From contig JACPHT010000008.1 of the NCBI GenBank assembly GCA_016188475.1, positions 150,192 through 214,191 of the forward strand: a DNA stretch of 64,000 bases, in the 5' to 3' direction. Positions 17,119-61,000 of the stretch are shown one piece after another. The position numbers were made by a program, and so were the translations under genes. This stretch comes from Candidatus Uhrbacteria bacterium. Its GTDB lineage: Bacteria > Patescibacteriota > Patescibacteriia > UBA9934 > GWF2-40-263. Numbering within the stretch: the first letter of the stretch is position 1; the number at the start of each line of letters is the position of its first letter. The notes beneath the pieces were generated by a model, which was not told the origin of the DNA, did no database searches, and was given only the letters and a program-made list of their open reading frames with translations.

Positions 17119-17541
17119 ATGGCAAAAAAACTCAAAACCCAAATTAAACTCCAAATACCTGGTGGAGCAGCAACTCCTGCGCCACCAGTTGGTCCTGCGC
17201 TTGGTCAACACGGATTACCAATCGGCGAATTTGTCAAAAAATTCAATGACGCAAGCCAAGACCGACGCGGCGAGATCGTTCCGATCATCATCAATGTTTA
17301 TGACGATCGAACGTTTGACTTTATAATGAAAACCGCGCCAGCTTCTGACATGATCAAAAAAGCTGCAAAAATCCAAAAAGGTTCTGGCAAGCCTCTTACT
17401 GATAAAGTTGGTTCAATAACCAAAGCACAGCTCCGTGAGATCGCTGAAAAAAAACTTCCCGATCTCAACACAAAGGATGTTGAACAAGCAATGAAGATTG
17501 TTGCCGGAACAGCTCAACAAATGGGAGTGGAGATAAAGTAA
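17119..17541 (+). CDS. rplK: 50S ribosomal protein L11
   Basis: [19 protein letters not shown]. Confidence 0.95.
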
Positions 17542-17638
17542 AAAAGTTAATAATCACAACTCTTAAAGTCAGAAGTCAAAGTCTTGGAGTCACAAAATGT
17601 ATCACTCCACGACTCAATGACTATATGACTCAAAATAT

Positions 17639-18016
17639 ATGTCCACAAAAGGAGGCTCGGTCATTTTGCGAATTTATTTCGCGCTTGTATCGTTCGTGAC
17701 ACTTATGATGCTCGTTTTTTCAGTGTCAGATTTAATAAACGTTGCTCTTAAAACTTACGTGTTCAAATTTGCTGACGCGCCAGAATACCCGATGTACTGT
17801 GAACCGCAATTCATAAAAGAGAATGTCAAAGAAACGGCTGAAGAAACGGAAGCGCGTTGCGCCCGTAACAAAGAACAAGAGAAACAATCGGCGATCGTAC
17901 GCAAGCAACAGTCTCTTGTGCGTGATATCTCGATGCTGATTGTCAGCCTCCCGTTGTTCTTCATTCATTTCCGAATTGTGCTAAGAGACTGGAAAGAGAT
18001 GAAAAAAGAAGTGTAA
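17639..18016 (+). CDS. hypothetical small 2-TM membrane protein inserted between rplK and rplA
   Basis: ORF plus TM segments. Confidence 0.35.
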   Translation: MSTKGGSVILRIYFALVSFVTLMMLVFSVSDLINVALKTYVFKFADAPEYPMYCEPQFIKENVKETAEETEARCARNKEQEKQSAIVRKQQSLVRDISMLIVSLPLFFIHFRIVLRDWKEMKKEV

Positions 18017-18028
18017 AATATAGCATTG

Positions 18029-18118
18029 CCTGAGCCTGTCGAAGGCAGTAAAGATTATAGCCTGAGCCTGTCGAAGGCAGTAAAGATTATAGCCTGAGCC
18101 TGTCGAAGGCAGTAAAAA
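18029..18118. repeat. Three tandem copies of a 32-bp unit (CCTGAGCCTGTCGAAGGCAGTAAAGATTATAG); a related single copy lies at 58731-58751
   Basis: Seen directly; the copies are contiguous with no spacers. Confidence 0.7.
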
Positions 18119-18172
18119 ATACTTTAATTAAAAATAGTGGGAGTCTAAAAGACGCCAATACCACAAACTAAT

Positions 18173-18853
18173 ATGCCAAGCAAAAGATTACAGGAAGCCA
18201 GAAAGTTAGTTGATAAATCAAAAGTTTATCCTATTGACGAAGCAATTGCGCTCGTTAAAAAAACAGCGACAGCAAAATACGATGAGGCGGTTGAATTGCA
18301 CATTCATCTTGGAATTGATCCGAGCAAATCCGATCAACAAGTTCGCGGAACAATCGCGCTTCCACATGGGGTCGGTAAAACAAAACGTGTTGCCGCGTTT
18401 GTAGAACCTGCAAAAGAAGCAGAAGCAACAAAAGCTGGAGCAGATATAGTCGGCAACGAAGAGTTGATTGAAAAAATTCTGCAAAAAGGTCAAATCGATT
18501 TCGATGTCGCAGTCGCAACTCCAGCCATGATGCCTAAAATTGCAAAGCTCGCTCGTTTGCTCGGTCCGCGTGGACTAATGCCAAACCCGAAAACCGATAC
18601 TGTTGGACCAAACATCACAAAGATGATTCAAGAACAAAAAGCTGGAAAACAAAGTTTTAAAAACGACACAACCGGAAACATTCACCAAATCTTCGGACGC
18701 GCGTCATTCACCGAAGATCAACTTAAAGAAAATTTGAAAGTCTTGTTGGAAGCAATCAAACGTTTAAAACCAGTCTCCTCAAAAGGAATCTTTCTAAAAA
18801 GTTCAACCATTACATCAACAGTAGGTCCTGGAATCAAAATCGAAGTAAATTAA
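18173..18853 (+). CDS. rplA: 50S ribosomal protein L1
   Basis: Full-length L1 similarity. Confidence 0.95.
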
Positions 18854-18962: not shown

Positions 18963-19619
18963 ATGTCCGTTCTCACTCGACACGAAATCCTTAAAGCAAT
19001 TTCCTCTGGCGATATTCATTTCACGCCGGAGATTGATAAATTCCAACTGCAACCGCACGCGGTTGATTTGCGGCTTGGATACAAATTTTTAATTCCACGC
19101 AATTGGACAGTTGATGAAAAAGGACGTCGCGCAATCAAAGTCGCGATAGACGACGCGAGCACACATCAGGAACAGTTTGATGAGGTTCAACTTAAAGACG
19201 GACAATATTTTGATCTGCTTCCGAATGAATTTGTAATTGGAACATCACTTGAACGAATCGAAATCAACGCAATGAACCTCATGGCTGTTTTATTTCCTCG
19301 AACTTCAACAAACCGTCGTGGAATTGATCTGTCTCTTTCAGGAATAATTGATACTGGTTACAAAGGCAATCTTATTTTTCCAATGCAAAACGAGGCTGGA
19401 GATCAAGTCATTCGTATTTATCCTGGCGAACGTGTTTGCCAAGTTATTTTTCAAGAATTAAACATGTCTCTAACTCCTGAAGAAGCAAACATGCACGGGA
19501 TAACAGCTTCAAAATATACAGACTCAAATTCACAAAATTTCGTTTTGGATAAAGAAGAAGAACGTCAATTTTTAACATCAGGAAAATTGGAAGAATTGAA
19601 AAAGAAATTTGAGATATAA
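18963..19619 (+). CDS. dcd: dCTP deaminase (dUTPase superfamily), standard size
   Basis: HAVDLRLGYKF...GIIDTGYKGNLIF pattern. Confidence 0.7.
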   Translation: MSVLTRHEILKAISSGDIHFTPEIDKFQLQPHAVDLRLGYKFLIPRNWTVDEKGRRAIKVAIDDASTHQEQFDEVQLKDGQYFDLLPNEFVIGTSLERIEINAMNLMAVLFPRTSTNRRGIDLSLSGIIDTGYKGNLIFPMQNEAGDQVIRIYPGERVCQVIFQELNMSLTPEEANMHGITASKYTDSNSQNFVLDKEEERQFLTSGKLEELKKKFEI

Positions 19620-19642
19620 AAAAACGGAGCGATGAAGATTCA

Positions 19643-20098
19643 TCAAGCTCCGTAAGAACTGGTTTCAAGGTCGAGACATTCGAGTTTTTGTCTGCACAAG
19701 CCGCAAGTTTCGAGGTGCTCGAACGCGCGATCCAGAAATCCAAGATTTTCTGGATTTTCAGACATAGTGACTCTGCACTCACGTTTCTCGTCGTCAAAGA
19801 CGGCTTGAAACTGAAAGTATGGAACATACAAATGGTATGCAAGCGAACAATCCACACAAAGACGACCGTCCCAAACGATCCATTGTTTTCTGCCTTCTAT
19901 ATGATGCATATGACGTGGATCGATCGAAGCCATAATCGGCAAACGTCCTCGATCAGGAACCAACAAAGTGAAACGGATACTGTACAGTTGCGTTCGACAC
20001 TCGAAGTTGTGTATTAGGTCCAAATTCCTAGACTTGAGCCTTATCGGGCATGCCGGGACATTTTCCCAGAACCGAATGTGTTGAGTTGAAAAAGTCAT
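19643..20098 (-). CDS. hypothetical protein; third gene of a GC-rich 3-gene cassette
   Basis: ORF, co-oriented with and tightly spaced to its neighbours. Confidence 0.35.
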   Translation of the reverse strand: MTFSTQHIRFWENVPACPIRLKSRNLDLIHNFECRTQLYSIRFTLLVPDRGRLPIMASIDPRHMHHIEGRKQWIVWDGRLCVDCSLAYHLYVPYFQFQAVFDDEKRECRVTMSENPENLGFLDRAFEHLETCGLCRQKLECLDLETSSYGA

Positions 20099-20113
20099 CT
20101 ACCTTTCCTCACT

Positions 20114-20566
20114 TTACTCGTCTACTTCGACGAGCCAGCGCCAGTTGTTATTGAATCCGCCTTCTGACAAGTCAAAAAATGGAACGCAGGTCTGTCCACT
20201 GTCAGCCCGAATGCACGGAAACAGGAAATAGCTGTACTGATCCCTCCATGAATCATCAGCGATTCCGACTGTTCCACCGCCATCAGCACTCTGGAACTTT
20301 GTGATCAATACCTCACGCCATTGACCTTCTGGAATTTTGCCGTGTTCTTTTAGAATTGCTACGACCGTACTGAAATGATCGCAACATCCAATTGTAATGA
20401 GCTTGAAACGGCGCGTTTGAACGCCTTTCACGAGTTTGCCTCTGTGTCGCCATTTCTCAAACCCGACTTCCCCGCTCCTATGAACCATTTCTATCGGGTC
20501 GTTATCTGGAGCGCTTCCGTCAAGTGTAAGTTCAAAGACCTCACCAAGAGCTGGAAAACATGCCAT
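20114..20566 (-). CDS. hypothetical protein; second gene of the GC-rich cassette
   Basis: ORF. Confidence 0.35.
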   Translation of the reverse strand: MACFPALGEVFELTLDGSAPDNDPIEMVHRSGEVGFEKWRHRGKLVKGVQTRRFKLITIGCCDHFSTVVAILKEHGKIPEGQWREVLITKFQSADGGGTVGIADDSWRDQYSYFLFPCIRADSGQTCVPFFDLSEGGFNNNWRWLVEVDE

Positions 20567-20674
20567 GAGTCATTTCCCTTTAACTCACTGCTTGATTGCA
20601 GCTTTCAAAAGACGTTCTTGCCATCTTCTCAAAGCCACGATAAAACCAATAAAAGAAGCCAAAAGATTACTTGA

Positions 20675-21046
20675 TTATGACGAATCTGTCAATGTTGGCT
20701 TGACAAAAACAAGATCATCACTCGCACCAAACGTGAGGCCGGATCTGGAATCAATCCGATCAAAATTTCGAGCAACGAGTGGGCAGTAATGCTCAAATTC
20801 ACATTCGCCTTGTGGCTCGACTCCGCTGAAGGACAGAAGTACACGACGGTCGGAGATTCCAACCGACACCTCGACAATGGCCAGATCGGAACAATAAATG
20901 GCGTCCCGGTCATTGTCGTCCCAAATCTTGAGGATCGTCTGCCAACCCCACCATCTGGTGTTAGGTAGCCGTTCTTTCTCCACCCATGTCCGACTAGGGC
21001 GTGGGTGCTTTTTATTTTCGATAAAAAAACTTAATTCATATTTCAC
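20675..21046 (-). CDS. hypothetical protein; first gene of the GC-rich cassette
   Basis: ORF. Confidence 0.35.
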   Translation of the reverse strand: MKYELSFFIENKKHPRPSRTWVEKERLPNTRWWGWQTILKIWDDNDRDAIYCSDLAIVEVSVGISDRRVLLSFSGVEPQGECEFEHYCPLVARNFDRIDSRSGLTFGASDDLVFVKPTLTDSS

Positions 21047-21077
21047 TTAACTACCGATCGGGAGTTAAGTGTGATAA
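21044..21077. repeat. Palindromic element, copy A (CACTTAACT(A/C)CCGATCGGGAGTTAAGTGTGAT)
   Basis: 28-bp hairpin with one mismatch plus a TGTGAT extension. Confidence 0.7.
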
Positions 21078-21086
21078 AGTTTAATT

Positions 21087-21662
21087 ATGTCTAAAAACAT
21101 CTCTTCAAATTCTGTTCCATCTAGAATCTTCGATGTGCTCTTATCAGAAGCCGATGATCTTCTATTTTTATTTCATCATCCTCATGCAGTGTTACGAACA
21201 GTAGGAAATATTGAATCTGCACGTAACATGCTCGCACGAAAAGAACGAAATCTTCAACGAATTAAAAAAACAGAAATCAACCAGGCCTTGCAACGACTCA
21301 ATTCGCAAAAATTACTGCGGATAAGTAAAAAGGGTAATGAAATTTACTTCTTTTTGACTGAAAATGGCATAAAAGAGGGTTTGAAACGTACAATTCAAAA
21401 GAAGAAACAACGTCTTGCAGGCAAACGACGTTGTTACGTGAGTTTTGATATTCCTGAACAAGCAAGTTCTACACGGTGGGCATTAAGAAAACTTTTGAAA
21501 GATTCACACTTCAAAATGATTCATCTTAGTTTATGGAGTTCTGAATTCGACGTTGGAAAAGAAATGGCGGCGTTGATAAAAATAATGAGAGCCGAAACAT
21601 GGGTACACGTTTTCGAAGCAAGGGCTCTAACTTCCATTAACAAAAAAAGCAAAAACTCGTAA
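21087..21662 (+). CDS. hypothetical protein: an N-terminal winged-HTH-like region plus a C-terminal region with a Cas2/VapD-like sequence pattern
   Basis: C-terminal RRCYVSFDIPEQASSTRWALRKLLKDSHFKMIHLSLWSS resembles the Cas2 beta1-alpha1-beta2 core (YD[IV]...R.LRK.L...G.R.Q.SVFEC). It is flanked on both sides by the 38-bp palindrome. There is no cas1 or CRISPR array nearby. Confidence 0.45.
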   Translation: MSKNISSNSVPSRIFDVLLSEADDLLFLFHHPHAVLRTVGNIESARNMLARKERNLQRIKKTEINQALQRLNSQKLLRISKKGNEIYFFLTENGIKEGLKRTIQKKKQRLAGKRRCYVSFDIPEQASSTRWALRKLLKDSHFKMIHLSLWSSEFDVGKEMAALIKIMRAETWVHVFEARALTSINKKSKNS

Positions 21663-21693
21663 TCACACTTAACTCCCGATCGGGAGTTAAGTG
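21661..21693. repeat. Palindromic element, copy B (AATCACACTTAACTCCCGATCGGGAGTTAAGTG), between convergent gene ends
   Basis: Perfect palindrome seen directly. Confidence 0.7.
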
Positions 21694-21694
21694 T

Positions 21695-22609
21695 TTACAG
21701 TTGTCTCAAAACGTTCTTCAACATACGACATGCTTCTTCTGTGGTTTCGTATTTGATGTGATAAACAATTGCTGGATTTCCAAGCGCAAAATTTGAAATC
21801 ACTGAATCTTTTTTTGAAATAAGCACGATTGGTTTTTCAAACATGTAAGCGAGAACGAGTTCGCCACCAGCTCCCAAAGATGGATTTGAAACATCAGCTA
21901 TGAGCACATCACAATTTTTGATTTTATTTTCAGTCCAATCATAAACCGCGCGAACGTCACGCTCTTCGCGTGGTTTTTTATTTTCAGGATTATCACGAAA
22001 TGGAATTATTGGTTCACAACCTAATTCATCACACACACGACCAAGCGCTTCGTGAACAACTTTATCATCAGCCAAACCATTATTGTTTGTATACGATCCA
22101 GCTATGTAGGCTGATTTTACAGTTGGTTTAAGTGTTTTTGAATACACTCTATCGCGATTAAACTCAACATGTGCGTTTGCTAGTAAATACACATTGCGAA
22201 TTCCATTTTCAATCATCACGTTCCAACATTGCTCGCAACACCACCAATGGCCGTACAAATAAATATCCGATCCTGACGGATCAATTCCCGACTCATTTGC
22301 AACAGCAATTACCATTTGTTCTGCATGTCCTGGAGCGTCGTGTAAATGACACAAATCATATCCTGTTCCACTAGGACACTCCAACACAACTCGAGGACAA
22401 ACATGTCTCGTGCCAGAACCTTTATTAAACCCATTTCCGGCTCGAGTGAAAATTTTTCCGTCTCTAACTAACACTGCTCCAACTGGATACAACCTGTCGC
22501 CTGCACAATCCTCGCGTGCGCGCGCCGCTTCTTGCATGAATGGATCGTCCGCACTGACAAAATAAAAAACTTTTCCATCAGGCAAAAATGGATACTCTAT
22601 TTCTGGCAT
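21695..22609 (-). CDS. Fusion protein: dCMP (cytidine/deoxycytidylate) deaminase domain plus a nucleoside 2-deoxyribosyltransferase-like (Rcl/DNPH1-like) domain
   Basis: Zinc motifs HAEQMVI and PCxxC-type WWCCEQC in the N-terminal half. The C-terminal half has AYIAGSY...SLGAGGELVLAYMFEKPIVLI, matching the NDT-family Rossmann signature. Confidence 0.65.
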   Translation of the reverse strand: MPEIEYPFLPDGKVFYFVSADDPFMQEAARAREDCAGDRLYPVGAVLVRDGKIFTRAGNGFNKGSGTRHVCPRVVLECPSGTGYDLCHLHDAPGHAEQMVIAVANESGIDPSGSDIYLYGHWWCCEQCWNVMIENGIRNVYLLANAHVEFNRDRVYSKTLKPTVKSAYIAGSYTNNNGLADDKVVHEALGRVCDELGCEPIIPFRDNPENKKPREERDVRAVYDWTENKIKNCDVLIADVSNPSLGAGGELVLAYMFEKPIVLISKKDSVISNFALGNPAIVYHIKYETTEEACRMLKNVLRQL

Positions 22610-23117
22610 AAAAAATGTAGCAAAACTGCTTGATCACCAAGTTGAGTAACTTCATCCAATTTCAAATTTATTCTTCCAAATCCTGACGCAAGTGGCACGC
22701 CATCGCCAAACAAAACCGGCTCAACTGTAAGATAAATTTCGGTAACAAGCTTCTCTTTCAGAAACTGACTGTAAATTGACGACCCACCTGCGATCACAAC
22801 ATTTTCAACACCTTCTTTTTGCAAACGTTCAAGTAGTTTGCACGGTTGTTCGCTCGTAAATTCAACCTTCCCGCTTTCTTCCTTTGTCTCCAGCTGTCTT
22901 CCATTGTCCTCCCTTGTCATCACTATCGTCTTCCTCCCCTTCAACGGCTTTCCAATTGTCTCAAAAGTCTTTCGACCCATAATCAAAACTCCTATCTCTT
23001 TTGTTTTTTCAATAAAAAAACGCAAATCTTCTTTCGATGTCCAATCAAGTGACGTCTGACATTCATGCTCTGCTATTTTTCCGTTTGCAGAAATCGCGGC
23101 AAGTAAAATAATTTTCA
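22597..23117 (-). CDS. dihydrofolate reductase-like (RibD C-terminal/DHFR family)
   Basis: MKIILLAAISANGKI...IAGGSSIYSQFL...VTEIYLTVEPVLFGDG. Confidence 0.65.
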
Positions 23118-23161
23118 TAAAGATATTCTTCGTCGCTTCGCTCCTCAGAATGACGAAAAGA

Positions 23162-23996
23162 CTAATAAACATTCACCGTGATCTCCATTCCACTAATCGA
23201 CTCAAGTGGTTGATACTGTGATTTAAGCGAGGTAAAAATTTCGTTCACAAGTTCTAAATCTCCGTTCATGGCGCGCTCGTAACTTCCAACAGGAACTCTC
23301 AAAGAAACAGGTCCATGATCATTCGTGCGGGAAATAAGTTCGCGTGCCGCAGTGAAATGATTGTCGTAAATATGCGCGTTACTGATCGAATGCGTGTAAA
23401 TTCCTGGTTGAACTTCAAGCCTGTCCGCCAAAATACATTGCAAAAGCGCAAATCCAGCCGCGTCATGAGGACATCCAAGCATCATGTCATTGCTTCTGAT
23501 AATATTGTGCAAATGCAATTTTCCACCAGCGATGTTTACAGTAAATGTATATGGACATGGGAGATTTTTCTTTGAATCAACACCGAGTCCGTCATCAGCC
23601 GGATCCCATGTGATCACAACCGCATGTCGAGAATGCGGATTTTGTGTGAGATGATTTACAAGACAATCAATTTGATCGCGTCCGAAATGATGACGCCAAC
23701 GATGGCCATACGCGGCTTTTACTGTTCCGTCTTCTTCCAAAAAATCATCCCAAATTTTTGTAAACTGTTGAAGCCAAGTTGGATTGTTCTGTCCCATCAA
23801 ATACCAAATTTGTTCAGCAATAAAAATCTTAAGAGGAATCTTTCGCAAAGTGAGAAGCGGAAAACTTTCCTGAACATCAACGCGCAACGTGACTCCAGGC
23901 AACATTCTCGTTATGCGGCCAGACCATGGATTTGGAATTTCATATCCATTTTCCATGATGTCGGAAATTGCGCTTTTGTATTGAACATCAAATGGG
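23162..23996 (-). CDS. thyA: thymidylate synthase ThyA family
   Basis: Catalytic-Cys region LPCPYTFTVNIAGGKLHLHNIIRSNDMMLGCPHDAAGFALL. The track's N-terminal extension (FPHFRPFGPF) is encoded by a 9-bp repeat copy and is probably 5' UTR. Confidence 0.8.
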
Positions 23997-24006
23997 GTCA
24001 TATTGT

Positions 24007-24038
24007 GGAAAGGTCTGAAAGGACCAAAAGGTCGAAAA
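24007..24038. repeat. 9-bp repeat-family copy (GGAAAGGTCTGAAAGGACCAAAAGGTCGAAAA) in the thyA 5' region
   Basis: Seen directly. Confidence 0.5.
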
Positions 24039-24126
24039 TGTGGAAACAATTTAATTTGACCCCCATAATGTACCAGACATGAGACCAGTTTCCAACATCC
24101 TATCTTTCGGATAAAATGCCTACATT

Positions 24127-24561
24127 ATGATTTTACCTGTGGAAATCTTCAAATGCCATCCTGACGCTGTTATTCCGGTCTATTATTCAACTGGCGCTTG
24201 CGCTTTTGATTTGTCCACAATCGAAGACGTTATTATCCAACCTGGCGAAATAGTACGCTTACGCACAGGCCTTGTAATATGTGTCCCTGAAAATTATGTA
24301 ATGATTGTTGTCGCACGATCGTCATTGCCAAAAAAATACGGTCTGTGTTTTCCACAAGGCATAGGAATAGTTGACAATGACTATTGCGGACCAACGGATG
24401 AAGCTCAACTGCAGTTACTTAATTTTACAGATCAACCAGTGGAAATTAGAAAAGGTGATAGACTCGCGCAAGCAATGCTTGTCCCGTTTGCTAAAGCTGA
24501 ATTTAAGGAAGTTATAAAACTGACAAATCCAAACCGCGGAGGCTTTGGTTCAACAGGTTAA
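24127..24561 (+). CDS. dut: dUTP diphosphatase
   Basis: Motifs ARSSLPKKYG, GIVDNDYCG, GDRLAQAMLVP, RGGFGSTG. Confidence 0.85.
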   Translation: MILPVEIFKCHPDAVIPVYYSTGACAFDLSTIEDVIIQPGEIVRLRTGLVICVPENYVMIVVARSSLPKKYGLCFPQGIGIVDNDYCGPTDEAQLQLLNFTDQPVEIRKGDRLAQAMLVPFAKAEFKEVIKLTNPNRGGFGSTG

Positions 24562-24576
24562 TCTGCTATAATTATT

Positions 24577-25290
24577 ATGACATTAGGACGATTCATTATG
24601 ATTGACGGAATCGCCGGCAGTGGCAAATCCACTGTTTTGCGTGCTGTCCAAACTTGGGCAGAATCTTGTCATCACAAAATCTTTCGTCTTTCACAATGGG
24701 AAGATGTTGAACCACCAAAGTTTGAACAAATCTCAAACTACGATGTTTATTTCACATACGAGCCAACACGCACTTGGATTGGTCGCGCGATAAGATACGA
24801 ACTTTCAAGAGAAGATAAGCCATACGATGGCGAGACGCTGGCACACGCATTCGCGCTTGATCGACAAATAATGTACAGGCGTTTAATAATACCTGCGATA
24901 AAAGCTGGAAAAACAATCATTCAAGATCGCGGAGTTTCAACTTCGCTTGTGTATCAGCCAATCATGCAAAACAGTTTGCCTCTTGAAACTGTAAAAAATC
25001 TCCCAGGAAACAAACTTTCTTTGGAATACGCGCCTAACGCTCTGATTCTAACAAAACTTTCTGCTGAAACAGCGGCTGAACGAATTGCGAAGCGAGACGA
25101 CGATTCAAAAGGTGTTTTTGGACAATTAGAATTTCTCAAAATACTAGAACAAAGATTTGAAGAACGGTGGCTAAAAGAATTGTTTGAATCACATGGAACT
25201 CACATATATTCACTTGACATGTCGGGAACCATTGAAGAAACTTCAGATCGGGCACAAAAACTCATTACAATAATTCTCTCTACATGTTAA
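24577..25290 (+). CDS. tmk: thymidylate (dNMP) kinase-like P-loop kinase
   Basis: IDGIAGSGKST P-loop; FTYEPT and DRGVSTSLVYQ resemble the Tmk motifs. Confidence 0.65.
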   Translation: MTLGRFIMIDGIAGSGKSTVLRAVQTWAESCHHKIFRLSQWEDVEPPKFEQISNYDVYFTYEPTRTWIGRAIRYELSREDKPYDGETLAHAFALDRQIMYRRLIIPAIKAGKTIIQDRGVSTSLVYQPIMQNSLPLETVKNLPGNKLSLEYAPNALILTKLSAETAAERIAKRDDDSKGVFGQLEFLKILEQRFEERWLKELFESHGTHIYSLDMSGTIEETSDRAQKLITIILSTC

Positions 25291-55140: not shown

Positions 55141-55785
55141 ATGAATCGCTGGCTCCCTTTTATCTTTATTGGTTTTTTTACTATCATAATTTTTCTTTTC
55201 TATTCTGTTTTCCTTAGCCCAGTTGATCTGGAAAGACTTCAAAAAGAACAACAACAAATATCCCTGACAGAACCGACAACAACATTTGTGAATCCTTCAC
55301 GTGGCGCAAACGATGCTAAAATCACAATCATTGAATTTGGCGATTTTGAATGCAGTGCGTGTCGCGATCTGATGCCGGCCTTGGAAACAGTTTTGAAAAC
55401 TTATCCAAACGACGTTCGACTTGTTTGGAAAGATTTACCAAATGATTCGGCTCATAAGCAAGCAATTCCGTCTGCCATTGCCGCGCATTGCGCTGATAGA
55501 CAGGGCGGATTTTGGCAATATCACGATGTGTTGTTCCAACGACAAGGATACCTGTCAGAAGATCAATACACACAAATTGCAAGCGAACTTAAACTCGACA
55601 CTGGACGATTTTCCACATGCATTCAAAATCAAGACACGCTTCCGATCGTACAAAAAGACAAAGAAGAAGGCCTCGCGCTTGGGCTTGTCGCAACTCCAAC
55701 AATTTTTGTGAATAAAGAAAAATTCGTCGGAGCAGTAAGTGTAGACGAATTACTACAAGTGATTCAACAAGAACTTTCAAAATAA
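55141..55785 (+). CDS. DsbA-like thiol:disulfide oxidoreductase
   Basis: CxxC motif (FGDFECSACRD). Confidence 0.65.
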   Translation: MNRWLPFIFIGFFTIIIFLFYSVFLSPVDLERLQKEQQQISLTEPTTTFVNPSRGANDAKITIIEFGDFECSACRDLMPALETVLKTYPNDVRLVWKDLPNDSAHKQAIPSAIAAHCADRQGGFWQYHDVLFQRQGYLSEDQYTQIASELKLDTGRFSTCIQNQDTLPIVQKDKEEGLALGLVATPTIFVNKEKFVGAVSVDELLQVIQQELSK

Positions 55786-55810
55786 TGATTATGAAACAGT
55801 CGCAAAATAT

Positions 55811-55891
55811 GTCATTGCGAGGAGCGAAGCGACGAAGCAATCTATGCGAATTAAGAGATTGCTTCGCTCCCTTTTGGTCGCTCGCAATGAC
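55811..55891. repeat. Nested palindromic element (GTCATTGCGAG family); it overlaps the 5' end of the track ORF for the pilin gene
   Basis: Seen directly. Confidence 0.65.
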
Positions 55892-57410
55892 AAATAGGAT
55901 TATTTTTTTATTTCTTTCTTTGTTCATAATTTTCGCACCGATTAGAACTTTCGCGGCTTCGACTTGCTATTGTTATTTCGGAGAAAAAAATGATTGCGCA
56001 CAAACATCTGTAGATGAAAATGCGATTATTGATGAATGTCAGCTCACATGCGAAACAAAATATCAAGACACTTTCAAAAGTGTAGATTTCACTGACGAAG
56101 CAGGTGGAGCAAACGATGTATTGGCACTAATGGATTGTTCATCAGCTCACGCAGACGCAAATGAAGCAGCAACAAAACCTTTCCAAGGAGGCGTTATTCC
56201 AAAATTGAACGTGGATATTCCAACAGTCACCTTTACTCCAGTTCTTCAAAAAGGCGGAAACTTATCAATCAATTTTTTAGCTGACTACATTCAGGGCGTT
56301 TATATTTATCTTTTATCAATAGCGGCAATCATCGCCGTAGTTTATATGATGATTGGAGGTTTGAGGTGGGTGCTTGCGGCTGGAGGCGCATCAAACATTG
56401 GCGAAGCAAAAACAATGATAAAAAATGCTGTGATCGGACTTGTTTTATTATTAAGCGTTGTTCTTATTTTAGAAACCGTAAACCCGCAACTCGCAACATT
56501 TAACCCATTTACAATTGAACGAATTCAAGAAGTAACAATTGATGAACAACAACATGCGCAAGATGCTGAAGAAGAATCTCAAGAACCTACAACACCTACT
56601 CAAGTACCAGCACCTTCAGGAACAGAAGGAACAAAAGTTTCTCTTGCATATTCAGATGGTGGAAGATTAAAAATGGAATATATCCAATTACCGCTTGATG
56701 CTGGCGATGAATATATCACTCCGCCACGCGTTTGCACTGTTCCTGTCCCTTCTGAACCAGCTTCATTGAGTGGTGTTGAAATAAATACAAAGTTTCTTGG
56801 TAATCTAGATTGTAATATCTCAAAACAAACGAAAAATAAAAAACGACCAGATAGTCAGATCAAGATGGTTATTCTACATCAAGGTTTTAAAAGCGATGGA
56901 GGACAAAATGGAAGTATGTGGTTCCAAAATTATGTTTATGGAACAACTGTGGTGTGCAAAAAAGAAAAATCTGGTGTGTTTAATTACAAAGCCTGCCAAC
57001 GAAACGGACAAAAATTGGTAAAACAGCCGACATTAAACCAAACGCCAATCGGAAGTCATTTTGCTGTAACTTTAGGTGGAACGATCTATCAATTAGCTGA
57101 TGTTGGACATATAATGAACCATTGCTGCGCGGAAAACAAAATTTCGGTTGGAATCGATTTGCAGTACGACATCGAAGGTGGAAAAAATGTATATTCAGAT
57201 TCTCAATATAAAAGTCTAGCAAAACTTATCAAAGGACTTAGTGAAAAATATAAATTTCCAATTGACGACAGCACGATAAAAGGCCATTGCGAACTTGGGA
57301 AGCATTCTGATCCTCCAAATTTCGATCTTAAAAAACTCGGAAACTTAATGGGCGTAACATTGGACCCAGGTCAGCATGGGAATGCAAAATGCAGCTGGGT
57401 CGCCTCATAA
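55887..57410 (+). CDS. TrbC/VirB2-like pilin domain protein fused to a C-terminal N-acetylmuramoyl-L-alanine amidase (amidase_2/PGRP-like) domain
   Basis: Signal peptide MTNRIIFLFLSLFIIFAPIRTFAAS; hydrophobic pilin-like segment (YIYLLSIAAIIAVVYMMIGGLRWVLAAGG); C-terminal ISVGIDLQYD and KGHCELGKHSDPPNFD amidase-like motifs. Confidence 0.55.
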   Translation: MTNRIIFLFLSLFIIFAPIRTFAASTCYCYFGEKNDCAQTSVDENAIIDECQLTCETKYQDTFKSVDFTDEAGGANDVLALMDCSSAHADANEAATKPFQGGVIPKLNVDIPTVTFTPVLQKGGNLSINFLADYIQGVYIYLLSIAAIIAVVYMMIGGLRWVLAAGGASNIGEAKTMIKNAVIGLVLLLSVVLILETVNPQLATFNPFTIERIQEVTIDEQQHAQDAEEESQEPTTPTQVPAPSGTEGTKVSLAYSDGGRLKMEYIQLPLDAGDEYITPPRVCTVPVPSEPASLSGVEINTKFLGNLDCNISKQTKNKKRPDSQIKMVILHQGFKSDGGQNGSMWFQNYVYGTTVVCKKEKSGVFNYKACQRNGQKLVKQPTLNQTPIGSHFAVTLGGTIYQLADVGHIMNHCCAENKISVGIDLQYDIEGGKNVYSDSQYKSLAKLIKGLSEKYKFPIDDSTIKGHCELGKHSDPPNFDLKKLGNLMGVTLDPGQHGNAKCSWVAS

Positions 57411-58787: not shown

Positions 58788-60839
58788 TCATTCCAAATGT
58801 GCTTCCTCAAAAGTTGCACGGATTTTTTCTAAAATGAGTGGATACTTTTCAAGTTCTGGATCCTCATTGAGCAATTTTGTTGTCCAATCAAAAGTCATTT
58901 TCATAATATCAACATCAGCCGGTGTCGCAAATTGAAAATCTGGAAAACCTGATTGAGCATTTCCAAATATATTCCCTGCTCCGCGAAGTTCCAGATCTTT
59001 TTCTGCGAGTTCGAATCCGTTTTGTGTTTGTTCAAGTGTTCGCAAACGCTCAAGTGCGATCTCGCTTGCATCATCCGACAGTAAATAACAATATGATCTT
59101 AGATCGCTTCTCCCAACACGACCACGAAGTTGATGGAGTTGCGCCAAACCAAATCGTTCTGCCCCAAAAATTACCATAACAGTTGCGTTAGGAACATCAA
59201 CTCCAACTTCCACAACAGTTGTTGAAACAAGAACATTTGTTTTTCCATCTTTGAATTTTTGTATAGCTTCTTGTTTTTCATCAGACTTTAATCTTCCATG
59301 CAAAATACCAATCTTGTAATCTTTAAGAGGACCTTTTTTAAGTTGTTCGCTAACATCGGTAACACTTTTCGCTCCTTGTTTATCAGATGGATCAATAAGC
59401 GGACACACTATATAAACCTGTTGCCCAAGCTTTATTTGACCCTTCACATGTTGCCACATTCCAGTACGGTGATTAGATGAAACAATCGCAGTTCCGATTG
59501 GTTTTCTGCCTTTTGGAAGCTGTGAGATAGCTGAAATATCTAAATCTCCATAAACAGTAAGGGCAAGCGAACGCGGAATTGGAGTGGCTGTCATTGATAG
59601 AAGATGTGCTGAAATTTGTCTCCCCTTCTCTAAGAGAGCATGACGTTGAGCCACACCAAAACGGTGTTGTTCGTCCACAATTACAAATGCAAGATTTGGA
59701 ATCTCGACCATCTCATCAAGCAAAGCGTGCGTGCCGACAACACAACGAACGTCACCGTTTTTTAATTTTTGCAAAAGTTCATCTTTTTTAACATCTTCAT
59801 CTCCAATCCGTTTTTGTGAACGAGTAAAAAGCGCTACTTTATACAATGGTAAAAATTTAGAAAAAACCGCTTGTTGTTGCGCCGCAAGAATTTCAGTTGG
59901 CGCAAGATATACAACCGCAAGATTATTTGAAAGAACGCTGTTTGCCGCGATTGCCGCAACAACAGTTTTTCCAGAGCCAACGTCCCCATGAAGCAAACGA
60001 TTCATAGGATTAGGTTTTGCAAGATCCTGAACAATCTCCCATGCGGCTTTTCGTTGGGCTGATGTAAGTTCAAACGGCAGTTGAGCAACAAATGTCTTCA
60101 AGACTTGTTCATTGATAGGAATTGTATGCGACTTACGTTTTTTGCGATCTTGTCTTGAACGCGCAAACATAAGTTGATGTAAAAATAATTCATCAAACTT
60201 TAAACGCTCGATCGCTTGGGTTAAATCTTTTTGATTTTCAGGAAAATGCACACTTTGGATTGCTTGCGACAAATCTGTATAAGCCGCTCTTTCTCTAATT
60301 GATTCTGGAATCCAATCAACTAGCTCATTTGAAGCTGAAAGAGCCGCGTTGATTGCTGTACGCAAGCGCTTCATTGTAAGCGAACCGGATAAACCATAAA
60401 CAGGAACGATCCTGCCTGTATGAACCCGCTTTCCCTCCGCCTCAAACACAGGATTTACGAGTGCTTTTCCAAAACGAAAATCTACTCGTCCAGAAAACGA
60501 AAGTCGTATGCCAGGACGTATGGTTTCGGTTAGATATTTTTGATTGAACCAAATGATCGGCAGTGTCCCGGTTTCATCTTCGATCACCGCGTCAACAATA
60601 GTCATTCTGCGACTTTTTGCTGGTCGTGAGTTAATAGAAACTATTACCCCACTCACTGTTACTGTTTCACCAGCTTTTACTTTTACGATTGGTTTGATAT
60701 TTGAAAAATCGTCATAGCGAAACGGAACATAAAACAAAAGATCATAAACAGAAAGAACCCCCATGTTTTTGAGGTCTTTAACTGCTTTTCCTCCAATTCC
60801 TGGGAGTTCAGAAACAGATGAGGATAAATGAAGCGCCAT
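58788..60839 (-). CDS. recG: ATP-dependent DNA helicase RecG
   Basis: Wedge domain plus helicase motifs (GDVGSGKTVVA). Confidence 0.9.
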   Translation of the reverse strand: MALHLSSSVSELPGIGGKAVKDLKNMGVLSVYDLLFYVPFRYDDFSNIKPIVKVKAGETVTVSGVIVSINSRPAKSRRMTIVDAVIEDETGTLPIIWFNQKYLTETIRPGIRLSFSGRVDFRFGKALVNPVFEAEGKRVHTGRIVPVYGLSGSLTMKRLRTAINAALSASNELVDWIPESIRERAAYTDLSQAIQSVHFPENQKDLTQAIERLKFDELFLHQLMFARSRQDRKKRKSHTIPINEQVLKTFVAQLPFELTSAQRKAAWEIVQDLAKPNPMNRLLHGDVGSGKTVVAAIAANSVLSNNLAVVYLAPTEILAAQQQAVFSKFLPLYKVALFTRSQKRIGDEDVKKDELLQKLKNGDVRCVVGTHALLDEMVEIPNLAFVIVDEQHRFGVAQRHALLEKGRQISAHLLSMTATPIPRSLALTVYGDLDISAISQLPKGRKPIGTAIVSSNHRTGMWQHVKGQIKLGQQVYIVCPLIDPSDKQGAKSVTDVSEQLKKGPLKDYKIGILHGRLKSDEKQEAIQKFKDGKTNVLVSTTVVEVGVDVPNATVMVIFGAERFGLAQLHQLRGRVGRSDLRSYCYLLSDDASEIALERLRTLEQTQNGFELAEKDLELRGAGNIFGNAQSGFPDFQFATPADVDIMKMTFDWTTKLLNEDPELEKYPLILEKIRATFEEAHLE

Positions 60840-60967: not shown

Positions 60968-61000
60968 CACTTAACTCCCGATCGGGAGTTAAGTGTGATT
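60968..61000. repeat. Palindromic element, copy C (CACTTAACTCCCGATCGGGAGTTAAGTGTGATT), upstream of recG and downstream of the tRNA cluster
   Basis: Seen directly. Confidence 0.7.

Follow-up and report, generated by a model that had tools for sequence, protein, structure and literature searches.

We analyzed a 64-kb stretch of DNA (64,000 nucleotides (nt), all of it hereafter the window; contig JACPHT010000008.1, positions 150,192 to 214,191 of the forward strand) from a Candidatus Uhrbacteria bacterium, an ultra-small member of the Candidate Phyla Radiation (CPR, or Patescibacteria). An island of genes for deoxyribonucleotide metabolism lies at positions 18963-25290, directly downstream of secE-nusG-rplK-rplA. 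It opens on the plus strand with a Dcd-family gene, here called dcdL (18963-19619, 218 amino acids (aa)). On the minus strand a thyA homologue (23162-24001), a dihydrofolate reductase (DHFR) gene (22597-23172; PF00186, 9e-21) and a dCMP_cyt_deam_1 plus Nuc_deoxyrib_tr fusion gene (21695-22609, 304 aa; PF00383, PF05014) follow one another head to tail. The plus-strand pair dut (24127-24561; PF00692, 2.9e-20) and tmk (24577-25290) is divergent from thyA, with a spacer of 125 nt. Three small hypothetical genes and a PaaX-like gene fill the space between dcdL and the fusion gene. All of the island genes listed in a preliminary description of this DNA were found in place by translation and by Pfam and NCBIfam searches.

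The thyA open reading frame (ORF) extends to a TTG at 24049, and the probable real start is M17 (nt 24001), which gives a protein of 279 aa, the length in all relatives. PF00303 matches the protein at 2e-54. HMMER alignments to solved thymidylate synthases (TS) place its Cys149 (nt 23555-23557), Pro150 and Asp180 (nt 23462-23464) at Cys146, His147 and Asn177 of Escherichia coli ThyA: RSNDMMLGCPHDAAGF stands against E. coli RSCDVFLGLPFNIASY, with Asp at Asn177, and LPCPY against APCHA, with Pro at His147. In a MAFFT alignment of the window protein and its 120 best homologues with E. coli ThyA, whose numbering is used below, position 177 is Asp in 121 of 121 sequences and position 147 is Pro in 120. 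The changes Trp83 to Phe and Arg127 to His are general in this set, and Cys146, Glu58, Tyr94, Arg166, Ser167, Asp169, His207 and Tyr209 are kept. The catalytic residues and the fold of TS are thus present, but Asn177 and the His147/Trp83/Arg127 set of canonical dUMP-specific ThyA are not. The broad TIGR03284 model accepts the protein (127.6 vs. a cutoff of 108.35), and the equivalog NCBIfam models NF002495-NF002499 score far under their cutoffs (best 155 vs. 327). An Asn177-to-Asp change switches TS from dUMP to dCMP, and positions 177 and 147 best separate the TS homologues associated with cytosine-modified phage DNA from those associated with unmodified phage DNA (PMC8670742).

The similarity ranking gave the same picture. 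Among 150 representatives from a library of 1.84 billion proteins (127 Asp-type and 23 Asn-type), the best 78 are all Asp-type, and the first Asn-type enzyme stands at rank 79. The best phage matches are from Bradleyvirinae, the group that contains Xp12 and PaMx74. The window ThyA scores 161 bits with Xp12 TS (36% identity), when compared with 144 bits for the nearest Asn-type representative, 110 for E. coli ThyA and 42 for T4 gp42. A shortened YGxRWRxHFGRDQ loop, a WDPxxDGxG..KNxPCP insertion, Phe83 and the C-terminal tail are common to the window protein and the Xp12 type, as are Asp177 and Pro147, which are also found in the Mallos and ZQG1 phage enzymes; the Xp12, Mallos and ZQG1 modules all include a DHFR. 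In a rough, unbootstrapped neighbour-joining tree, the clade that joins the window ThyA with the TS of phage Mallos (Bradleyvirinae) contains no Asn-type enzyme among its 92 leaves. Experiments have demonstrated 5-methyl-dC formation by Xp12 TS and by five of seven related Asp-type enzymes (bioRxiv 10.1101/2024.12.05.627091). The preliminary description noticed a resemblance to phage base-modification modules and then dismissed it on the ground that the ThyA looked canonical. The resemblance was correctly flagged; the dismissal was not, as both the specificity residues and the Asp-type clade speak against a plain canonical ThyA.

Relatives of this ThyA were sought in one genome per species and were found in at least 370 genomes. 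The best 80 of the 370 all belong to CPR (Uhr-, Kerfeld-, Magasanik-, Woese-, Nomura-, Falkow-, Kuenen-, Gracili- and Peribacteria, and Paceibacterota). Neighbouring genes were counted within 10 kb of the ThyA homologue in 83 loci, 47 of which are well flanked (at least 6 kb on each side). DHFR is present in 70 of the 83 loci and in 44 of the 47 well-flanked ones, where it adjoins the ThyA homologue. The corresponding numbers are 61 and 41 for the deaminase, 46 and 28 for DcdL, 42 and 27 for gatB, 39 and 27 for rplK, 30 and 20 for rplA, 29 and 21 for tmk, and 25 and 13 for dut. Outside Uhrbacteria the genes usually run rplK-rplA-thyA-dhfr-dcdL-deaminase-(dut)-(tmk)-gatB. Uhrbacteria have the thyA-dhfr-deaminase block in inverted orientation, with a variable spacer between it and dcdL. 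The Asp-type ThyA, DHFR and a divergent deaminase, often with DcdL and Tmk, form a cluster that is conserved across many CPR lineages. No ThyX was detected within 10 kb of any cluster (phmmer, window proteins against the window and the 83 loci), and neither ThyX nor a second ThyA was found within the window.

Because the order rplK-rplA, cluster, gatB recurs in dozens of CPR genomes of different classes, the position of the cluster after rplA is an old, ancestral CPR arrangement, and neither a graft nor an assembly artefact. The preliminary description stated that rplJ, rplL and rpoB are absent from the window, and none of them was found there. Its further proposal that the island had been grafted in their place does not agree with the synteny, and the same recurrence across classes disposes of the assembly chimera that it had considered.

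Many of the cluster-bearing CPR contigs were deposited under the titles 'uncultured Gammaproteobacteria bacterium' or 'Candidatus Saccharibacteria' (loci L008, L010, L015-L017, L023 and others). Both the gene content and a ThyA identity of 75-82% to Uhrbacteria proteins point to wrong taxonomic labels.

The DHFR probably starts at M19 (nt 23118), and at its other end dhfr shares 13 nt with the beginning of the fusion gene. The GxxT[FY] and GG motifs of the DHFR are conserved in 71 relatives. DHFR is required only where dihydrofolate is a product (PMC5175136, PMC6400193). The C-terminal tail of the window ThyA is TS-like and aligns with E. coli residues 258-264. In TS this tail seals the folate site for hydride transfer, and the T4 dCMP hydroxymethylase is without it (PMC6400193). 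Because the TS-like tail is kept and DHFR is adjacent, transfer of a methyl rather than of a hydroxymethyl group is predicted. Ser167 and Arg126 point to a deoxyribo substrate, unlike that of MilA. We predict that the ThyA homologue is a dCMP C5-methyltransferase that would yield 5-methyl-dCMP and dihydrofolate.

DcdL has the Dcd fold (PF22769, 1.6e-26; TIGR02274, 91.2, just under the cutoff of 92.8), and its best solved relative is the bifunctional Dcd:Dut of Mycobacterium tuberculosis. DcdL LIFPMQN stands against ITLELSN of that enzyme, so that Pro140 (nt 19380-19382) occupies the place of the catalytic Glu (Glu138 in E. coli Dcd, Glu129 in M. tuberculosis). Pro is found at this position in 44 of 44 cluster-linked relatives. 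The nucleotide-binding residues Arg110, Ser/Thr111, Arg115 and Asp128 are kept, as are Gly133 and Asn141, and Asp128 corresponds to the motif III Asp that dUTPases use for hydrolysis. Because Pro replaces the catalytic Glu in all 44 relatives, DcdL is unlikely to deaminate dCTP by the known mechanism, and the 'dcd' of the preliminary description can hardly serve as the dUTP source proposed there. The sole superfamily activity that would be left to it is triphosphate hydrolysis. DcdL is a candidate pyrophosphatase, which may convert dCTP to dCMP and pyrophosphate (PPi) or hydrolyze 5-methyl-dCTP. Homology with the T4 dCTPase gp56 was considered and rejected: the two show no significant similarity, and gp56, an all-alpha dUTPase_2 protein (PF08761), has a different fold, so that the likeness is functional only.

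The N-terminal part of the fusion protein belongs to the dCMP-deaminase family of zinc enzymes (with HAE at aa 95-97 and CCEQC at aa 124-128; PF00383, 1.5e-11) and is marked as a separate subfamily by GHWWCCxxCW and a Cys-rich insertion. The domain is covered by 61 cluster-linked deaminase ORFs: 60 of them retain H[AS]E, the other one has HGE in its place, and GHWWCCxxCW is recognizable, with minor variation, in all 61. This half has no solved relative in the PDB at E<0.01. Transfer of substrate specificity from the phage deaminases was ruled out, similarity being weak to the Mallos enzyme and absent to that of ZQG1. The predicted role of the deaminase is conversion of a 5-methyl-dC nucleotide into a dT nucleotide.

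The C-terminal part of the fusion protein is a DNPH1/Rcl-like domain (PSLGAGGEL at aa 243-251; PF05014, 7.6e-9), and DNPH1/Rcl proteins are the only PDB matches of the whole protein. The catalytic-Glu motif aligns, ADVSNPSLGAGGEL standing against AEVTQPSLGVGYEL of rat and human DNPH1/Rcl; AYIAGSY fits the N-terminal Y-x-x-G-S loop, and the catalytic Glu of PSLGxGxE is kept. The domain is predicted to cleave the N-glycosidic bond of an unwanted deoxynucleoside monophosphate (dNMP). It is present in 14 of the 47 well-flanked loci and is a separate gene in some Paceibacterota. In several Uhrbacteria (loci L001, L008, L009, L010, L013, L014 and L021) it is cut to a remnant of ∼85 aa that retains the first and last segments only (...NVLRQL), and it appears to be decaying within this group. 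In L004 (11401-12316), a 94%-identical relative, the fusion is split into two overlapping ORFs by a frameshift or a sequencing error.

Dut is a canonical trimeric dUTPase, with the motif III Asp and motif V GGFGSTG conserved, and its TIGR00576 score of 102.0 is borderline (cutoff 102.55). With a presence in 13 of the 47 well-flanked loci, it counts as an accessory member of the cluster. Eight of these loci carry both dut and the DNPH1-like domain, 5 dut only, 6 the domain only and 28 neither (odds ratio 7.5, p = 0.01, loci being counted without phylogenetic correction). Dut and the DNPH1-like domain probably form an accessory disposal line for dU nucleotides, which would be of no use to a dCMP-specific methylase.

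Tmk passes TIGR00041 (92.3, over a cutoff of 83.25), its P-loop and DR motif are in place, and the thymine-contacting Arg96 and Gln127 (R70 and Q101 of Staphylococcus aureus TMK) are invariant in 27 of 27 relatives. These two residues and the passing of the equivalog threshold favour the view that dTMP is a real intermediate and that deamination therefore takes place on the monophosphate. A more distant CPR genome (L002/L003, 13865-14416) has an extra 183-aa AAA_18/AAA_17 gene between the deaminase gene and a Tmk-like gene. Its product is adenylate/cytidylate-kinase-like and is a candidate kinase for a modified dNMP.

The closest known counterpart of the cluster is the module of Xp12/PaMx74-type phages (Bradleyvirinae), which consists of a PRA-PH pyrophosphohydrolase, an Asp177 TS acting as dCMP methyltransferase, a dCMP-deaminase-family enzyme and a DHFR. 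The same four functions are adjacent in both, as read here from the genes, and DHFR is coupled in both. Unlike the phage module, the CPR cluster is chromosomal and housekeeping, conserved across many lineages beside rplK-rplA and gatB, and includes Tmk and sometimes Dut. Its pyrophosphatase candidate is Dcd-derived, whereas the phage enzyme is an unrelated PRA-PH/MazG-like protein encoded just upstream of the TS gene. Its deaminase belongs to a separate and very divergent subfamily, and is sometimes fused to the DNPH1-like domain.

We propose, with a probability of about 0.55, that the island has at its core a conserved CPR housekeeping cluster in which thymidylate is made by methylation first and deamination second. 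The steps would be as follows: (i) DcdL would hydrolyze dCTP to dCMP, or return 5-methyl-dCTP to the monophosphate; (ii) the Asp-type ThyA would methylate dCMP to 5-methyl-dCMP with methylene-tetrahydrofolate, releasing dihydrofolate; (iii) the translationally coupled DHFR would recycle the dihydrofolate; (iv) the divergent dCMP-deaminase-family enzyme would turn the 5-methyl-dC nucleotide into a dT nucleotide; and (v) Tmk would phosphorylate dTMP to dTDP. The accessory Dut and DNPH1-like domain would remove dU nucleotides, from dUTP to dUMP and then to uracil and deoxyribose-5-phosphate. The preliminary description had seen in the island a complete route from dC/dCTP and dUTP to dTDP. Its end point stands: the neighbouring Tmk is conventional and the DHFR closely coupled, so that thymidylate is very probably the end product; passage through dCTP, dUTP, dUMP and dTMP is unlikely, because the catalytic Glu of DcdL is Pro.

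Several observations weigh against methylation before deamination. The substrates are read from active-site residues and gene neighbours. The placement of the window ThyA among Asp-type enzymes derives from signature residues, indels and the unbootstrapped tree, and at ∼36% its identity to Xp12 TS is about equal to that to the nearest Asn-type enzymes. At the phosphate site, R127 to His and R21 to Trp differ from E. coli and Xp12 alike. Between the CPR deaminase and its phage counterparts there is hardly any similarity (30% identity over 103 aa with that of Mallos, no match with that of ZQG1), and the one well-characterized phage deaminase of this kind, mSCD-B5, acts on 5-methyl-dCTP and not on the monophosphate (bioRxiv 10.1101/2024.12.05.627091). 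DcdL lies within 10 kb in only 28 of the 47 well-flanked loci, and a Dut gene and a dCMP-deaminase-family gene are equally expected in the canonical pathway.

In that canonical pathway, Dcd and Dut or a dCMP deaminase would supply dUMP, ThyA would methylate dUMP, DHFR would recycle the folate, Tmk would phosphorylate dTMP, and Asp177 would be a tolerated peculiarity of the lineage. At the domain level the gene set is indeed the textbook one. Dut and Tmk are conventional, every database source annotates these proteins as thymidylate synthase and dCTP deaminase, and the nearest Asn-type enzymes are nearly as similar to the window ThyA as Xp12 TS is. We nevertheless consider canonical synthesis unlikely, because the invariant changes in two enzymes must be ignored: Asp177 and Pro147, the residues that mark cytosine-specific homologues, run through the whole clade, the N177D mutation makes a TS a dCMP methylase (PMC8670742), and the Dcd-like protein is without the deaminase Glu in every relative. 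Dut, moreover, is present in 13 of the 47 clusters and absent from the majority. Slightly more doubtful is a full Xp12-like system in the cell, in which DcdL would destroy dCTP, 5-methyl-dCMP would be phosphorylated, and one part of the 5-methyl-dCTP would be deaminated to dTTP and the rest incorporated, with genomic C largely or wholly 5-methylcytosine. The use of 5-methyl-dCTP by mSCD-B5 would suit it, and in phages an Asp-type TS beside a deaminase marks cytosine-modified DNA (bioRxiv 10.1101/2024.12.05.627091). The four-function parallel with the Xp12 module also favours it, as does, weakly, the absence of any M.HhaI-like C5 DNA methyltransferase from the window and ∼1.5 Mb of related loci, a sample too small and a query too narrow for this negative to be informative. 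However, the cluster-linked Tmk keeps the thymine-specific Arg and Gln, which fits a dTMP intermediate, no obvious 5-methyl-dCMP kinase is seen, and DcdL is missing near many clusters. We know of no cellular organism with globally substituted cytosine, and a literature search found no report of globally 5-methylated DNA for CPR.

A (d)CMP hydroxymethylase function like that of T4 gp42 or MilA/BcmA, which would give 5-hydroxymethyl pyrimidines or, by MilB/BcmB-like cleavage, a free modified base, is very improbable for the ThyA homologue. Asp at position 177 is common to T4 gp42 (Asp179) and MilA, and an N-glycosidase-family domain is fused to the neighbouring gene product. Human DCTD and then DNPH1 process 5-hydroxymethyl-dCMP, in the same order as the two domains of the fusion. 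On the other hand, identity to gp42 is only 24% (42 bits), the N-hydrolase domain is found in just 14 of the 47 loci and is decayed in several Uhrbacteria, and the DHFR linkage in 44 of the 47 would be needless for such an enzyme. Ser167 and Arg126 indicate a deoxyribo substrate and not the ribo substrate of MilA, and the TS-type tail is present, whereas hydroxymethylases are without it (PMC6400193).

Three known systems help to place the proposed order of methylation before deamination. The canonical bacterial dTTP pathway (Dcd or Dcd:Dut, Dut, ThyA, FolA and Tmk) shares with the cluster its protein families, the dTDP product and folate recycling. It differs in that the CPR ThyA has Asp177 and Pro147, Dcd Glu138 has become Pro, and the deaminase would act after methylation and not before. 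The dC-replacement system of T4 comprises the gp56 dCTPase, the gp42 dCMP hydroxymethylase, cd, frd, td and gp1. Conversion of dCTP to dCMP, C5 modification by an Asp-bearing ThyA homologue, and a deaminase and a DHFR alongside are the points of likeness; T4, however, relies on a gp56 unrelated to DcdL, on a tail-less gp42 that hydroxymethylates, and has a separate true TS. In humans, DCTD, DNPH1 and DCTPP1 are separate proteins that serve the salvage hygiene of modified dC nucleotides. The CPR fusion similarly places a dCMP-family deaminase before a dNMP N-hydrolase with the catalytic PSLGxGxE motif, and the dCTP/5-methyl-dCTP pyrophosphatase role proposed for DcdL resembles sanitation by DCTPP1. 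Unlike the human set, the CPR deaminase would be biosynthetic, and the N-hydrolase domain is optional and decayed in some lineages.

The chemistry and the four-gene logic are already known from Xp12-type phages. A conserved chromosomal housekeeping cluster of this kind in cells, with a Dcd-derived pyrophosphatase candidate and a deaminase-DNPH1 fusion, appears to be new: no earlier account came up in literature searches that paired CPR/Patescibacteria with thymidylate synthase, dCMP, dCTP deaminase or 5-methylcytosine, and the preprint on 5-methylcytosine (5mC) deaminases does not mention cellular carriers (bioRxiv 10.1101/2024.12.05.627091). If the proposed route is correct, a large part of CPR/Patescibacteria makes thymidylate by dCMP methylation and subsequent deamination, with no dUMP intermediate, an order hitherto described only for a few phages such as Xp12. 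Thousands of 'thymidylate synthase' and 'dCTP deaminase' annotations would then be wrong in metabolic reconstructions of these organisms. The cluster would also offer new dCMP methyltransferases, and perhaps 5mC-selective deaminases, of interest for methylome sequencing. It suggests an evolutionary link, in either direction, between the phage 5mC modules and a cellular pathway, and makes global 5-methylation of cellular DNA a directly testable question. Should the full Xp12-type programme be true, global substitution of a DNA base would be seen in cellular organisms for the first time, with consequences for restriction, phage resistance and mutation bias, and for the behaviour of this DNA in library preparation and sequencing methods that are sensitive to methylation.

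Three small minus-strand hypothetical genes (19643-20098, 20114-20566 and 20675-21046; 151, 150 and 123 aa) and a PaaX_M/Cas2-like gene on the plus strand (21087-21662, 191 aa; PF20803, 7.4e-10) occupy the spacer between dcdL and the fusion gene. None of the hypotheticals gave a match in Pfam, NCBIfam, PHROG or PADLOC, and among the loci compared they are restricted to the closest relatives. The middle one (150 aa) has a 100% identical counterpart in a Candidatus Uhrbacteria metagenome-assembled genome and belongs to a CPR-wide family, whose members occur in unrelated contexts, beside housekeeping or glycosyltransferase genes. The preliminary description called this DNA GC-rich and foreign-looking. 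The hypotheticals are only mildly GC-rich (0.45-0.48, with the PaaX-like gene at 0.36 and the window mean at 0.41), and the identity and family membership of the middle protein lend no support to a foreign origin.

The same description spoke of a palindrome-flanked cassette, and two copies of the perfect 28-30 nt palindrome CACTTAACTCCCGATCGGGAGTTAAGTG (21044-21072 and 21665-21694) do exactly bracket the PaaX-like gene. The window has one more copy, at 60968-60995, with recG (58788-60839) on one side and a 171-aa ORF on the other; the palindrome has GATC at its centre, and three copies in the window compare with 0 expected by chance. It may be a REP-like (repetitive extragenic palindromic) hairpin, a terminator, or an operator of the PaaX-like regulator. 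The gene and palindrome unit is also present in L004 and L005, and in no other compared locus. The only PADLOC matches of the PaaX-like protein are two marginal ones (LmuC, E = 0.00078; a type II methyltransferase model, E = 0.0088). A defence or mobile-element reading of the spacer was rejected on these marginal matches, the lack of PADLOC and PHROG matches for the hypotheticals, and the unrelated settings of the 150-aa homologues. The hypotheticals and the PaaX-like/palindrome unit are lineage-specific filler in a permissive spacer, probably outside the pathway. In Uhrbacteria the dhfr/deaminase and deaminase/dcdL spacers hold differing unannotated genes (e.g., L001, 11349-13631 and 13678-15324), such as a 760-aa or 1112-aa ORF or two ORFs of ∼106 aa, and this position is a hotspot for lineage-specific genes.

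The remainder of the window carries tsf, rpsB, queA, prfA, prmC, ftsW, gyrB, secE, nusG, rplK, rplA, gatB, miaA, miaB, thrS, dnaE, pheST, tyrS, glmM, clp, radA and recG, so that the setting is plainly an ordinary CPR housekeeping chromosome. The conserved upstream neighbour of the cluster, identified by translation and Pfam, spans 17119-18853 on the plus strand (rplK, a small DUF5671 membrane ORF and rplA). The membrane ORF (17639-18016, 125 aa, a weak DUF5671 match) separates the usually contiguous L11-L1 pair. A helix-turn-helix plus rve_3 integrase-core transposase gene at 1016-1897 is the sole clearly mobile element seen in the window. At 55785-57410 a 541-aa protein combines a segment resembling a type IV secretion system pilin (T4SS-pilin-like) with an N-acetylmuramoyl-L-alanine amidase domain; its neighbours are a DsbA-like thioredoxin and two ORFs without annotation, and it may belong to a CPR type IV secretion or competence surface apparatus.

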